64,000 nucleotides of DNA from Escherichia phage vB_EcoM_VR7. Numbering within the stretch: position 1 is the stretch's first letter; every line of letters starts with the position of its first letter. The stretch lies in the sequence record NC_014792.1; one strand, 5' to 3'. A model generated the notes under the pieces. It did not search any database, was not told the origin of the DNA, and saw only the letters and a list, made by a program, of their open reading frames with translations. The translations under genes and the position numbers were made by a program. Shown here piece after piece: positions 42,865 through 47,349 of the stretch.

Positions 42865-42886
42865 AAAGGGCCGAAGCCCTTTCCTT
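42862..42886. terminator. Terminator hairpin between nrdB and denA
   Basis: gggcc-gaag-ccc with flanking A/T runs. Confidence 0.65.
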
Positions 42887-44063
42887 ATAGATATTTACGG
42901 AAACCAGCAAGAACATTCTCATCGACGTCATTGTCAATCTGGGCTACCAGGTAAGCGGACAACTCAACTTCTTGTGGCGCAGATTGCACATTATCAGAAT
43001 TGAGATATTCGCGAATCCATGGAATCGGGTGCTTAGTAGATTCTAACACGATTTCACAAGGGAGACCGCATTGCTTCATACGAGAAACTGTCAGGTAATC
43101 GATGAACCGGTTAAGAATCTCGACGCTCAGCCCGGGGAGTCCACCATCTTTAAACAGATGCACAGCCCATTCTTTTTCCTGACGATTGACTTCCATGAAA
43201 ATAGCTGCGGCTTCTGCTTCACATTCGTGAGCAATTTTAACCCATTCGTCACCGTCAACACCAGTCTGCAGCTGACGAAGAATATATTGGGTTCCCTTAA
43301 GGTGGAGCTGCTCATCACGTGCGATGAACTTCATTATCTTCGCATTGCCTTCCATGATTTCCATGTTCTTATGGAAGTTGAAAGTACAAGCAAAAGATAC
43401 ATAAAAACGAATTGCTTCCAGGGCGTTAATGACATGCAGGCAGAGATAAAGAGATTTCATCAATGCTCGTTTGGCAATAGCTTCTTGTTTGATAGCTCGT
43501 TCCAAACGTTGGTCCACTTCGGGAGTTTCTTTGGCCAGTTCAACAAAAGCAATCTGGTTTTGCCATTGACGAGTTTTATTCAGAACATCATCATAGTAAT
43601 AGCCAATTGATTCGGCTCGCTTCATGATTGCATCATCTAACAGGATTTCGTCGAATACCTTCGCCGGGTCTGTATAGAGATTTCGCATGATGTGTGTATA
43701 AGAACGAGAGTGAATTGTCTCGCTGAATGTCCAGGTCTGAATCCATGTATCAAGACTCGGGTCAGAAACTAATGCGGCTAATGCTGCAGCCGGAGCACGA
43801 CCCTGGATACTGTCCAGAAGTGATTGGTACTTCAGGTTATTGGTAAAAATATTTTGTTGATGTTCAGGAAGCTTATTAAATTGAGCTCCGTCCATCATCA
43901 GGTTTACTTCCTCGGGCCGCCAGAAGAATGACAATTGCTTTTCTGTTAATTCTTCAAAAACTTTATGACGCTGGATATCATAACGGGCGATGCCCAATCC
44001 TGAACCAAAAAACATCGGCTCGGCTAAAACATCCACCGGAGTGGTATTAAAAACTGTACTCAT
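42885..44063 (-). CDS. nrdB: Ribonucleotide reductase small subunit
   Basis: 392 aa, class Ia R2 fold; position as T4 nrdB; uninterrupted (no intron). Confidence 0.93.
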   Translation of the reverse strand: MSTVFNTTPVDVLAEPMFFGSGLGIARYDIQRHKVFEELTEKQLSFFWRPEEVNLMMDGAQFNKLPEHQQNIFTNNLKYQSLLDSIQGRAPAAALAALVSDPSLDTWIQTWTFSETIHSRSYTHIMRNLYTDPAKVFDEILLDDAIMKRAESIGYYYDDVLNKTRQWQNQIAFVELAKETPEVDQRLERAIKQEAIAKRALMKSLYLCLHVINALEAIRFYVSFACTFNFHKNMEIMEGNAKIMKFIARDEQLHLKGTQYILRQLQTGVDGDEWVKIAHECEAEAAAIFMEVNRQEKEWAVHLFKDGGLPGLSVEILNRFIDYLTVSRMKQCGLPCEIVLESTKHPIPWIREYLNSDNVQSAPQEVELSAYLVAQIDNDVDENVLAGFRKYL

Positions 44064-44101
44064 TTTATTTCCTCAATAGCTCATCCATGAGCATAATTAT
44101 A

Positions 44102-46357
44102 TCAAAGTTTACAAGCGGAGCAGTCTTCTGCTTTAGGAGCTTCGATTTCGTAATCGTCTGTTCCGGAACCGTCTCTAGTGTTATGATAATAAAGGTTTTT
44201 TCCACCAAAATACCAGAAGTACATCAAGTCGTCAAGCATAACTGACATCGGAACTTTTCCTTTCGGAAAAATCTGTGGGTCATAGTATGTGTTTGCTGAA
44301 GCTGATTGACATACCCATTTCAACATAATAGCTACCATCGTAAGATAAGGTTTATTACCTTTCTTAGCTAGCACCCATGCATAATCGTACAATCCTTTAT
44401 TGTGCTCAATATTGGGCACGACTTGATTAAAGGAACCCTCTTTTGACTCTTTAATAGAGACTGGTCCACGCGGAGGTTCGATACCGTTTGTACTGTTAGA
44501 AACTTGGGAAGATGACTCACAAGGCATAAGTGCTGATAATGTGCTATTACGGATGCCATATGCAACCAGGTCTTCCCGCAACTGCGCCCAGTCACAAACG
44601 TAGTTTGGAGCTGCGATTTGGTCAATCTTTTTATTGTACCAGTCGATAGGTAATTCGCCTCGAGCCCAACGAGTGTCTGAATAATATTCGCAAGGTCCTT
44701 TTTCTTTGGCGAGCTTGATTGATGCTCGGATAAGGCCATATTGTAATCTCTCAAATAATTCATGGGTTAAATCGTTTGCATCAGCGTAAGAAGCGAAATT
44801 GCTTGCCAGCCATGCAGCATAGTTAGTAACCCCAACACCCAGGTTACGGCGTTTTTTGGCTTTCAGAGCTTCTTTAACCGGATAACCTTGGTAGTCCAAC
44901 AGGTTATCAAGAGCACGAACTTGAACTTCAGCCAGCTCGTTAATCTTGTCTTGGTCCTGCCAGTCAAAACTATCCAGAACAAATGCAGACAATGTGCACA
45001 ATCCGATTTCAGCGTCTTCACTGTTTACATCAGTAGTCGGGATTGCAATTTCACAACATAAATTCGATTGACGAATCGGAGCCTTATCGCGGATGAACGG
45101 AGTATAGTCATTCACATTATCAACGAACTGCGGATAAACTCGGGCAGTGCCGGAACGTTCGGTCATGAATAATTCGAACAGGTCTTTTGCTTTGATGCGC
45201 TTCTTACGAACTGTCGGGTCTTTTTCCAAGGCTTCGTATAACTCACGGAATTTATCCGGGTTATCAAAATATGAATAATACAATTCACCACCGGCTTCGT
45301 GTGGACTAAACAGAGTGATGTAATCATTCTTAGCCAGTCGTTCCATCATCAGGTTATTCAACTGAACACCATAGTCCATATGTCTGATGCGGTTTTCTTC
45401 AACGCCCTTGTTGTTCTTCAGAACGAGTAAATTTTCAACTTCCAAATGCCATAAAGGATAATAAGCAGTAGCAGCGCCGCCACGGATTCCACCTTGTGAA
45501 CAGGATTTAACAGCCGTTTGGAAATGTTTCCAGAACGGAATAACACCAGTATGCTTGACTTCACCCATACCGATTTTCGAACCTTCAGCACGAATCATGC
45601 CAACGTTGATACCGATACCCGCCCGCTTACTGATATATTCGATGATTGAATTGGCGGTCTTATTGATTGACTTCAGGGAGTCAGCAGCTTCGATAACCAC
45701 ACAGGAACTGAACTGCCGGGTAGGTGTTCTGGCGCCCGCCATGATAGGTGTGGGCAACGAAACCTGTCTTGTGGATACTGCATCATAAAAACGGCAAACG
45801 TGCTTCAGACGGTCCGTTGGTTCATCCTGGTGCAGTGCCATGCCGATAGCCATGATAGCGAATTGCGGAGTCTCGTAGATTTTACCGGTGGTTTTATCTT
45901 TAACCAGGTATTTCTCTTTCAACTGCATCGCGCCTGCATAAGTCAGGTCAAAATCACGTTCGTGTTTGATACGAGATTCCAGATAAGTAATCTCTTCGGC
46001 GGAGTAGCTTGACAACAGTTCCGGGTCATATTTGCCTTCATTGACACAATAAGAAATCTGGTCAATAAAAGAACGTGGCTCGAACTGACCATAGACATCT
46101 TTACGCAGAGCAAACATCGTAGCTTTGGCCGCAACATATTGGTAATCTGGTTCTTCAACCGAGATAAGTCCAGCAGACACTTTGATGATAACCGTCTGAA
46201 TATCGCGAGTAGTCATACCATCGCGCAGATGTGGTTTGATTGTTTCGTATAATTCATACGGGTCGATATTAGTTCCTTCACATGACCAGGAAAGAACTTT
46301 AATAATTTTCTGGCCATCAAAATCTTGAGATACGCCACTACTTTTTTGTACTTGCAT
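44102..46357 (-). CDS. nrdA: Ribonucleotide reductase large subunit
   Basis: 751 aa; conserved RNR catalytic motifs (e.g. NLCCEI); position as T4 nrdA. Confidence 0.95.
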   Translation of the reverse strand: MQVQKSSGVSQDFDGQKIIKVLSWSCEGTNIDPYELYETIKPHLRDGMTTRDIQTVIIKVSAGLISVEEPDYQYVAAKATMFALRKDVYGQFEPRSFIDQISYCVNEGKYDPELLSSYSAEEITYLESRIKHERDFDLTYAGAMQLKEKYLVKDKTTGKIYETPQFAIMAIGMALHQDEPTDRLKHVCRFYDAVSTRQVSLPTPIMAGARTPTRQFSSCVVIEAADSLKSINKTANSIIEYISKRAGIGINVGMIRAEGSKIGMGEVKHTGVIPFWKHFQTAVKSCSQGGIRGGAATAYYPLWHLEVENLLVLKNNKGVEENRIRHMDYGVQLNNLMMERLAKNDYITLFSPHEAGGELYYSYFDNPDKFRELYEALEKDPTVRKKRIKAKDLFELFMTERSGTARVYPQFVDNVNDYTPFIRDKAPIRQSNLCCEIAIPTTDVNSEDAEIGLCTLSAFVLDSFDWQDQDKINELAEVQVRALDNLLDYQGYPVKEALKAKKRRNLGVGVTNYAAWLASNFASYADANDLTHELFERLQYGLIRASIKLAKEKGPCEYYSDTRWARGELPIDWYNKKIDQIAAPNYVCDWAQLREDLVAYGIRNSTLSALMPCESSSQVSNSTNGIEPPRGPVSIKESKEGSFNQVVPNIEHNKGLYDYAWVLAKKGNKPYLTMVAIMLKWVCQSASANTYYDPQIFPKGKVPMSVMLDDLMYFWYFGGKNLYYHNTRDGSGTDDYEIEAPKAEDCSACKL

Positions 46358-46377
46358 GTTTTCCTCTGTTATAAAAT

Positions 46378-46430
46378 GGGGTCATGCTTATACTAACACA
46401 TGACCCCTGGAGCGGAATCGTATTTATAGA
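46378..46430 (-). promoter_or_regulatory. 9-bp stem hairpin plus a late-promoter-like TATAAATA between td and nrdA
   Basis: ggggtcatg-cttatactaaca-catgacccc; minus-strand TATAAATA at ~46421-46428. Confidence 0.4.
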
Positions 46431-46488
46431 AGGAAGTTAAGTCCGACCATTACGACCAAAAATAAAATGCCAGCAATTTGAATTTTCA

Positions 46489-47349
46489 TTAGACCGCCAT
46501 CGGTGCTGGTATTGTCGGATGTGGCTCATAGTTTTCCAGAACAAAATCACCCGGAGACATATGACGAGTCACCCAATATAACTGCATTTCCGTGTCCCAT
46601 AACTGGAACTGTTCAGGCCAATTGATTTTCAGAGTTGGCAAAGTCTTAGGTTCACGACGAAGAACTTCTTTGCATTGCTCGATATGGTTAAGATAGATAT
46701 GCGTGTTACCACCCATGAATATCAACTTACCAGGCTTGAGTCTAGTCATTTTAGCGACAATATGTAAAAGCGTACCATAAGAACCAATGTCAAACGGAAG
46801 CCCCAGGAATACATCAACCGAACGTTGATACCATAACAGGTCAAGCTCACCATCGTGTACGTTAAATTGGTAAAGCAGATGACAAGGAGGTAGAGCCATT
46901 TGTTTCAGTTCAGCCGGGTTCCATGCAGACACAATCTGACGACGGTCAGTCGGAACTTTCTTAACTTTCTCGATGGTCTCAACCAGCTGGTCAACCCCAC
47001 CAAAATCGCGCCACTGTTTACCATATACTGGACCCAGTTCGCCATCAACATAACCTAACGCACGACCTTGAGCTTCAAAGTTCTGGTCCCAGATAGTCTT
47101 TTTATCAGAGTCAGGGCCATGAGTAATTTCACGAAGACGTTCAACGTTCGTAGAACCTTCCAGGAACCACAGAAGCTCACCAACCACAGATTTGTATGCC
47201 AAACGTTTAACGGTCGTTGCAGGGAAGCCTTCAGACATGTCCCACTCAACTTTAGTACCAAATGTTGCGATAGTACCAGTTCCTGTGCGGTCGTCAGTCT
47301 GATAGCCAATGTCAAATACAGTTTGAATCAAGTCTTGATAATTTTTCAT
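46489..47349 (-). CDS. td: Thymidylate synthase
   Basis: 286 aa; ThyA motifs (LPPCH..YQF, WNPAEL); uninterrupted (no intron). Confidence 0.96.

Follow-up and report, generated by a model that had tools for sequence, protein, structure and literature searches.

In phage T4, td and nrdB each carry an intron containing an open reading frame (I-TevI and I-TevIII, respectively) and mobE lies between nrdA and nrdB. The initial annotation of the DNA examined here, a 64,000-nt stretch of Escherichia phage vB_EcoM_VR7 (NC_014792.1) referred to below as the window, cited the two T4 introns, in agreement with the T4 annotation, and claimed that the window has neither of them. That the occurrence of introns varies among the T-even phages has been known since 1987–89. 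The question is whether the genes are truly uninterrupted in the window and, if so, how their empty sites are to be explained. The region frd-td-nrdA-nrdB-denA is almost certainly the standard T4-type nucleotide-precursor gene block of a Gaprivervirus phage, with three sites that are filled by mobile elements in T4 left unoccupied. The identity of the genes, their continuity and the absence of the elements are direct observations; as an absence was claimed, the test was direct rather than statistical.

Gene order and continuity of the reading frames

The block comprises the following genes.
47346 to 47927, minus strand: frd, dihydrofolate reductase (ORF listing, PF00186, VR25 annotation)
46489 to 47349, minus strand: td, thymidylate synthase, 286 aa, uninterrupted (ORF listing, Pfam, T4 alignments)
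44102 to 46357, minus strand: nrdA, class Ia ribonucleotide reductase large subunit, 751 aa, uninterrupted (ORF listing, Pfam)
42885 to 44063, minus strand: nrdB, ribonucleotide reductase small subunit, 392 aa, uninterrupted (ORF listing, Pfam, T4 alignments)
42448 to 42858, minus strand: denA, endonuclease II (ORF listing, Pfam, VR25 annotation)

In the ORF listing td, nrdA and nrdB were each found as one continuous frame on the minus strand. The frd stop and the td start overlap by 4 nt, and the frd start was placed at 47927 by homology with VR25 and T4, the longest ORF beginning at 47939. The product of denA is a GIY-YIG enzyme, and the gene belongs to the normal phage complement rather than to the homing endonucleases.

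The Td protein matched Thymidylat_synt (PF00303) over residues 2–286, covering profile positions 1–266 of 266 with an E-value of 1e-89 and 300.6 bits against a cut-off of 24.3. The 751-aa NrdA ORF contained the ATP-cone (PF03477), the all-alpha Ribonuc_red_lgN (PF00317) and the barrel Ribonuc_red_lgC (PF02867, E 3e-132) domains and the 392-aa NrdB ORF matched Ribonuc_red_sm (PF00268, E 2e-35) of the ferritin-like R2 family. With the domains of both subunits present and nrdA and nrdB adjacent, 38 nt apart, the pair is a class Ia ribonucleotide reductase. The single ORFs, their full-length Pfam matches and their collinearity with the spliced T4 products bear out the claim that td (286 aa) and nrdB (392 aa) are continuous. 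Td, NrdA and NrdB would thus be translated straight from continuous frames with no need for RNA splicing.

The T4 intron sites in td and nrdB

Three positions were located by alignment.
46800 to 46801, minus strand: equivalent of the T4 td intron insertion site, empty, between td nt 549 and 550 (...CCTGGGG followed by CTTCCG...)
43387 to 43388, minus strand: equivalent of the T4 nrdB intron insertion site, empty, between nrdB nt 676 and 677 (...TCTTTTGCTT followed by GTACTTTC...)
43938 to 43942, minus strand: counterpart, by alignment, of the site at which MobE nicks T2 nrdB (nt 122–126)

The initial annotation had proposed alignment to the T4 exon junctions as a check, and this alignment showed both introns to be missing with the protein alignments ungapped across the junctions. 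In td, nt 548 and 549 of the window pair with nt 548 and 1566 of the T4 genomic gene, the intron of ∼1017 nt being absent, and 186 of the 287 aligned protein columns are identical. In nrdB, nt 674 and 677 pair with T4 genomic nt 662 and 1263, the 598-nt intron being absent, and 317 of 393 protein positions are identical. NrdB has 392 residues against 388 in T4, the net four extra residues falling in a variable surface segment (window aa ∼178–193) and arising from two indels, of five residues and of one, that lie ∼30 codons before the T4 intron site. A group I intron would appear as extra non-coding sequence breaking the frame; none was found in td or nrdB, and at both sites the sequence runs parallel to the joined T4 exons. 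All 31 close matches to td were single pieces of 861 bp. The close nrdB matches listed, ∼30 of them full-length, were likewise single pieces, of 1179 bp, while the copy in one record was cut by the start of that record.

Using the geometry of the I-TevI site given in PMC2988022, the cleavage motif CAACG was found to be retained at −27 to −23 of the td site in the window. Nine of the 39 positions of the homing site differ between the window and T4, all of them silent except in the last codon, where Asn is replaced by Asp. Codon 42 of nrdB is AAG (Lys) and is followed by the conserved FFWRPEE block; AAG at this codon has been reported for phages without mobE, and the nick site itself was mapped in T2 nrdB (PMC2790892).

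The nrdA gene aligned with its T4 counterpart in a single blastn match (nt 13–2250, 79.7% identity). No intein, in the sense of an in-frame insertion of more than 130 aa, was seen in NrdA (751 aa against 754 in T4) or NrdB, and no large insertion was aligned in either.

Searches for intron cores and endonuclease genes

A search with Rfam at the gathering threshold gave nothing in the window. However, the T4 control, which has both introns, was also missed, and this empty result alone therefore shows nothing. When the scan was run by E-value, RF00028 was recovered at 40.3 bits for T4 td (E 9e-8) and at 35.7 bits for T4 nrdB (E 2e-6), while it had no match at E≤10 in 41000–49000 and none at E≤1 across the whole window. 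The suggested scan for intron cores was thus negative for region and window alike in a mode that finds both T4 introns. RF00028 is a covariance model of the catalytic core (P3–P9) that recognises group I cores of known type only, and even the T4 introns fall under its curated threshold; the RNA scan is therefore supporting evidence and the collinearity with the spliced T4 proteins is decisive. A lack of Rfam hits should not alone be used to declare a phage gene intron-free, given that the default threshold misses the classic T4 introns.

The T4 td and nrdB introns gave only short chance-level matches in the window by blastn at word size 7 (E≥0.015). Using tblastn, no match to T4 MobE, I-TevI, I-TevIII, nrdA.1 or nrdA.2 was observed within 42885–47349, and I-TevI had no match anywhere in the window. 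MobE and I-TevIII matched only the endonuclease gene beside pseT described below; the sole I-TevIII match there is a 26-aa C-terminal motif at 37947–38021.

The spacers flanking nrdA

Two spacers flank nrdA.
44064 to 44101, minus strand: nrdA-nrdB spacer, 38 nt from the nrdA stop to the nrdB start, the empty form of the mobE site
46358 to 46488, minus strand: td-nrdA spacer, 131 nt, without nrdA.1 or nrdA.2 genes

The 38-nt gap between nrdA and nrdB leaves no room for a gene. It contains no HNH ORF and no tblastn match, so that the claimed absence of a mobE-like gene from this junction holds. Remnants of nrdA.1, nrdA.2 and nrdB.1 were sought in both spacers and none was found, the only nrdB.1 match falling inside the endonuclease gene beside pseT.

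A perfect TATAAT, which as an nrdB promoter is a pattern match only, directly follows the nrdA stop, and GAGG precedes the nrdB ATG. Where mobE is missing from a phage, the middle promoter of nrdB is located within the nrdA 3′ end or the spacer (PMC2790892), and transcription of nrdB in the window may similarly begin from a promoter at the extreme end of nrdA or in the spacer. The td-nrdA spacer contains a T4-type late-promoter-like TATAAATA at 46421–46428 and a clear 10-bp hairpin at 46378–46408, upstream of nrdA, although the fold of the whole spacer has a z-score of only −1.46. A promoter and terminator scan of 42400–48200 gave no excess over shuffled sequence, with 16 promoter-like elements against 13.0±3.9 and 5 terminator-like elements against 4.1±1.9.

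Mobile-element-like genes elsewhere in the window

The mobile elements of this phage had been placed at three other positions, namely the 18/19 junction, pseT and next to gene 32.
37374 to 38099, plus strand: MobE-family HNH homing endonuclease gene beside pseT (phrog_655, to which T4 MobE also belongs)
50922 to 51470, minus strand: segG-like GIY-YIG homing endonuclease gene between genes 32 and 59 (phrog_7504)
385 to 990, plus strand: 201-aa ORF between genes 18 and 19 (phrog_5104, unknown function)

This placement holds. The gene beside pseT lies on the opposite strand to pseT, overlaps its 3′ end and is shared with VR25 (VR25_236). It has 51% identity to the HNH domain of T4 MobE, and homology to MobE in the window is confined to 37374–37595. 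The segG-like gene has 54% identity to the N-terminal domain of T4 SegG, occupies the same position as T4 segG and sits in an insertion of ∼680 bp that is absent from VR25. At the third position, between genes 18 and 19, the insertion stands (678 bp relative to VR25, with the ORF sporadic among T4-like phages) but its assignment to a nuclease is weak. No usable match to this ORF was found in Pfam or NCBIfam and a weak endonuclease VII-like match (E 9e-4) was obtained, such that a nuclease role is suspected only.

Relatives within Gaprivervirus

The window was 98.5% identical at the nucleotide level over 42400–48000 to vB_EcoM_VR25 (KP007361, Gaprivervirus vr25; genes VR25_245–249). In VR25 the genes follow in the same order, td (861 bp), nrdA (2256 bp) and nrdB (1179 bp) are likewise annotated as uninterrupted, and the spacers are again 38 nt (nrdA-nrdB) and 131 nt (td-nrdA). 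Within the block the two phages differ by point differences only, 14 of them in nrdB, and td is 99.1% identical. Elsewhere the window has the two extra insertions already described, the ORF between 18 and 19 and the segG-like gene, and lacks a stretch of ∼290 bp that holds VR25_256 in VR25. It is mainly by the two inserted ORFs that the window differs from this nearest relative.

The window, VR25 and VR20 have almost the same nrdA-nrdB spacer, 38 nt long. In contrast, at least three Gaprivervirus phages (RZ, P479 and TH15) have a MobE-family HNH endonuclease gene of 213–242 aa between nrdA and nrdB, its ATG overlapping the nrdA stop (TAATG) as in T4. These three resemble the window in nrdB and td, which are 94–96% identical and both uninterrupted, but differ from it in the MobE-family gene and in small ORFs at td-nrdA; small ORFs were observed in the td-nrdA spacer of VR26, VR20, RZ and TH15. 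In every sampled Gaprivervirus, then, td and nrdB are uninterrupted, whereas the state of the nrdA-nrdB junction differs from one member to another. Within Gaprivervirus this junction is a live site of presence or absence of MobE-family endonuclease genes. In the literature on VR25 and Gaprivervirus nothing was found about introns in the genus.

Origin of the unoccupied sites

Most likely the introns were never fixed in this lineage, as opposed to having been acquired and later lost, and nothing was found that contradicts this explanation of the unoccupied state. That the genes instead hide an interruption with no loss of the open frame (a short in-frame intron without an ORF, an intein or a translational bypass element, for instance) is a negligible prospect and is effectively refuted already: Td has 286 aa in both phages and is ungapped through the junction, NrdA differs by three residues within its single match to T4, the NrdB indels are much smaller than any intron or intein would be, and RF00028 gave no match. 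It is also very unlikely that the state is secondary, with an ancestor having carried at least one of the elements and lost it without a trace of the insertion, for instance when it recombined with an unoccupied allele in a co-infected cell. The polymorphism of the nrdA-nrdB junction, occupied in RZ, P479 and TH15 and empty in the window, VR25, VR26 and VR20, does mean that gain and loss are evidently ongoing there. However, no sampled Gaprivervirus has a td or nrdB intron, so that absence is the simplest ancestral state, and the nearly identical empty spacer in the window, VR25 and VR20 has no remnant of an endonuclease gene.

Immunity would account for the empty sites if synonymous divergence of the targets blocked cutting by I-TevI, I-TevIII or MobE and hence homing into the genus. 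The nine differences from T4 in the I-TevI homing site would fit this, as would P479, where the allele next to the MobE-family gene reads AAA TCC CTC at nrdB codons 42–44 against AAG CAA TTG in the window, the difference from empty alleles expected of a self-protecting allele. I-TevI, however, tolerates many substitutions, and in the window CAACG is retained with the right spacing. A MobE-family gene is present in relatives whose nrdB is very similar, and the window shares AAG at codon 42 and FFWRPEE with the mobE-less phages; among these, nicking has been demonstrated for T2 (PMC2790892). Immunity is an unlikely explanation. It is possible, though doubtful, that td and nrdB of Gaprivervirus are fully cleavable, naive homing sites, as the CAACG spacing, codon 42 and the FFWRPEE block would allow; the genus-wide absence of introns would then be due to a barrier to exchange with intron-bearing Tequatrovirus phages rather than to target immunity. 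Such a barrier could consist of co-infection exclusion, too little flanking homology (∼73–77% identity) or a different ecology. If the sites are indeed naive, the phage could be used as a natural recipient to determine the extent of flanking divergence at which intron homing still works.

Comparison with T4, T2 and other phages

The uninterrupted td and nrdB are correctly described and ordinary, this being the usual state for T4 relatives. The finding matters little beyond the correct annotation, which is three continuous genes and no splicing. The T4 td intron was found at ≥80% coverage in ∼197 phage records and the nrdB intron in ∼118, as against 943 records with the td-nrd block; these are megablast counts that include duplicate RefSeq/GenBank entries and the fractions are rough. 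The phage is placed among the majority of T4 relatives that have neither the td nor the nrdB intron. Among the T-even phages the three introns vary in occurrence and T4 is the outlier in endonuclease load (PMC2988022). The third T4 intron site is in nrdD, a gene located outside the window.

T4 (NC_000866) has the same gene order and orientation as the window, including the frd/td overlap, with protein identities of ∼65% for Td and ∼81% for NrdB and the nucleotide identity given above for nrdA. Only T4 has the ∼1-kb td intron with I-TevI and the nrdB intron with a defective I-TevIII, and only T4 has mobE and nrdB.1 at nrdA-nrdB and nrdA.1 and nrdA.2 at td-nrdA; the window lacks all of these. 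The window instead resembles T2 and the other intron-less, mobE-less T-even phages, in which td, nrdB and the nrdA-nrdB junction are unoccupied and to which it also conforms in nrdB codon 42, although T2 is a Tequatrovirus, the window phage belongs to another genus and the likeness to T2 is drawn from the literature.

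The td-nrd block and its empty intron sites

The phage is a T4-like coliphage in the genus Gaprivervirus. Window positions 42400-48000 shared 98.5% identity with Escherichia phage vB_EcoM_VR25 and ~94-96% with VR26, VR20, SP18 and some two dozen further Gaprivervirus records. Each gene assignment in the block below was backed by full-length Pfam matches.

Genes, spacers and empty sites (unoccupied equivalents of the T4 intron insertion points) in the td-nrd block, all on the minus strand
47346-47927, minus: frd (Pfam DHFR_1)
46489-47349, minus: td, 286 aa (Pfam Thymidylat_synt, 300.6 bits, whole profile covered)
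between 46801 and 46800, minus: empty td intron site, from the T4 comparison
46358-46488, minus: td-nrdA spacer, 131 nt
44102-46357, minus: nrdA, 751 aa (Pfam ATP-cone, Ribonuc_red_lgN and Ribonuc_red_lgC)
nrdA stop to nrdB start, minus: nrdA-nrdB spacer, 38 nt
42885-44063, minus: nrdB, 392 aa (Pfam Ribonuc_red_sm)
between 43388 and 43387, minus: empty nrdB intron site, from the T4 comparison
42448-42858, minus: denA (Pfam GIY-YIG)
41315-42451, minus: rnlA (Pfam T4 RNA ligase 1 domains)

The initial annotation held that td and nrdB are uninterrupted here while their T4 counterparts carry introns with endonuclease reading frames, and both the observation and its interpretation proved correct. 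In the T4 record td and nrdB are two-piece genes with I-TevI and I-TevIII inside them, mobE and nrdB.1 lie between nrdA and nrdB, and nrdA.1 and nrdA.2 lie between td and nrdA. Aligned to the T4 genomic genes, nucleotides 548 and 549 of the window td fell on T4 nucleotides 548 and 1566, and nucleotides 674 and 677 of the window nrdB on 662 and 1263. These jumps indicate that exactly the T4 introns, of ~1017 nt and 598 nt, are missing from the window. With the T4 introns removed, the proteins ran without a gap through both exon junctions, the continuous frames being collinear with the spliced T4 genes. Td has 286 aa in both phages (186 of 287 aligned columns identical) and NrdB has 392 aa against 388 aa in T4 (317 of 393), the only NrdB indels lying ~30 codons upstream of the intron site. 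nrdA gave one single match to T4 nrdA (nt 13-2250, 79.7%), thus it contains neither an intein nor a split. The 38-nt gap between the nrdA stop and the nrdB start also bears out the claim that no mobE-like gene lies there.

Scan for group I intron cores

Rfam at its gathering thresholds gave zero matches in the window. It also gave zero matches in a 17-kb T4 control (NC_000866, 133000-150000) despite the presence of both introns, hence the negative result in the window at these thresholds carries no weight. With E-value thresholds, the group I intron family RF00028 scored 40.3 bits (E 9e-8) in T4 td and 35.7 bits (E 2e-6) in T4 nrdB, both below its curated cut-off of 50 bits. In this same mode, which recovered both T4 introns, RF00028 was absent from window positions 41000-49000 at E<=10 and from the whole 64 kb at E<=1. 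Since the T4 introns are missed by default, a negative default Rfam scan is no evidence against ORF-containing phage introns. Searching the window with both T4 introns (blastn) gave short chance matches only, and tblastn gave no match anywhere for I-TevI and none for nrdA.1 or nrdA.2.

Variation among relatives

Neither the td intron nor the nrdB intron was present in any Gaprivervirus sampled: td was a single 861-bp piece in 31 of 31 close matches (80-99% identity) and nrdB a single 1179-bp piece in ~30 full-length close matches. The nrdA-nrdB junction is variable within the genus. It holds an ORF of 242 aa in RZ and TH15 and of 213 aa in P479, assigned to phrog_655, the PHROG of T4 MobE, with HNH and NUMOD motifs; the P479 protein shares 54% identity with T4 MobE. 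The ATG of these ORFs overlaps the nrdA stop (TAATG), exactly the T4 arrangement. Judging from the annotation that accompanies the nrdB matches, the junction appears to be occupied in this way in vB_YenM_P8 and DK-13 as well. The empty 38-nt spacer is almost identical in the window, VR25 and VR20.

The td-nrdA spacer is variable too, with small ORFs in VR26, VR20, RZ, P479 and TH15 (in VR26 and VR20 the annotation calls them homologues of nrdA.1 or nrdA.2) and none in the window or VR25. The 131-nt spacer matches inter-ORF segments of the ORF-bearing relatives piecewise. The pattern looks as if ORFs had come and gone between regulatory segments that stayed conserved.

Mobile-type genes elsewhere in the window

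Compared with VR25, the window carries two insertions, 318-995 (genes 18/19) and 50800-51481 (genes 32/59).

Endonuclease-like and candidate mobile reading frames
50922-51470, minus: segG-like GIY-YIG ORF, 182 aa, in insertion 50800-51481, at the T4 segG position
37374-38099, plus: MobE-family HNH ORF, 241 aa, adjoining pseT, common to VR25
385-990, plus: ORF between genes 18 and 19, 201 aa, in the 678-bp insertion relative to VR25

The mobile elements had been placed next to gene 32, at pseT and at the 18/19 junction, and the first two placements were upheld. The N-terminal 115 residues of the segG-like ORF are 54% identical to T4 SegG, whereas its C-terminal part is shorter and unrelated; the 98%-identical VR25 lacks such a gene between genes 32 and 59. 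The ORF beside pseT shares 51% identity with the HNH domain of MobE and is convergent with pseT (38013-38921, minus), the 3' ends overlapping by ~87 nt. The zinc-finger-like stretch at the C-terminal end of this ORF has further matches at the C-termini of T4 nrdB.1 and I-TevIII, suggesting that nrdB.1 in T4 is a C-terminal piece detached from a MobE that was formerly longer.

At the third place, flanked by genes 18 (tail sheath) and 19 (tail tube), the insertion and its ORF were borne out, with an endonuclease as candidate function. The ORF gave a weak endonuclease VII-like match. The ORF belongs to PHROG 5104 (“unknown function”) and has an HNH-like C-terminal motif; Pfam gave zero matches to it. 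Homologues occur in 234 phage records, all those listed being annotated as hypothetical, with 99.5% identity in phage TH57. A mobile gene would fit its pattern of presence and absence, and the ORF is a candidate for an undescribed family of free-standing endonucleases.

Other differences from VR25 were seen. Upstream of gene 32, at ~49731/49698, the window lacks a ~290-bp VR25 stretch (VR25 147469-147759) holding the small hypothetical gene VR25_256. A collagen-repeat (G-x-y) protein (11816-13099, plus; 427 aa, against a 1581-bp gene in VR25) and a Hoc-like protein (13227-14045, plus) occupy a region of which 11961-14039 has diverged from VR25_196/VR25_197 past megablast recognition.

The empty sites as possible targets

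The window td keeps the CAACG cleavage motif of the I-TevI site at -27..-23 (site geometry from PMC2988022). This site differs from T4 at 9 of its 39 positions, silently except in the last codon (Asn to Asp). The MobE nicking site was mapped in T2 nrdB at nt 122-126, and MobE-dependent nicking was shown in one mobE-less phage, T2 (PMC2790892). In the window nrdB, codon 42 is AAG and the FFWRPEE block is present, the state reported for phages without mobE (PMC2790892). The empty sites may be potential endonuclease targets.

At this nicking position, codons 42-44 of nrdB read AAG CAA/CAG TTA/TTG (K Q L) in empty-site phages and AAA TCC CTC (K S L) in P479, where a mobE homologue is present; this difference may be a self-protection polymorphism. 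RZ has empty-type codons; its endonuclease gene is related but differs in the C-terminal half.

Expression

Because the three genes are uninterrupted, Td, NrdA and NrdB would be made directly from continuous messages. A perfect TATAAT lies just past the nrdA stop and GAGG precedes the nrdB ATG; the TATAAT might be an nrdB promoter, as a pattern match only. A generic promoter scan found the region no richer than shuffled sequence. Two elements lie upstream of nrdA in the td-nrdA spacer:
46421-46428: late-promoter-like TATAAATA, T4-type
46378-46408: 10-bp hairpin

Comparison with known phages

Within the phage collection, ~197 records carried the T4 td intron at >=80% coverage and ~118 the T4 nrdB intron, rough megablast counts that include duplicate records; the window td-nrd block was matched by 943 phage records. 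The intron counts agree with literature cited in PMC2988022, including a 1989 source. Intron-free td and nrdB are genus-typical, already annotated and ordinary, and the distribution of the introns among relatives has been known for decades. T4 itself is described as the outlier, most related genomes having few endonuclease insertions (PMC2988022).
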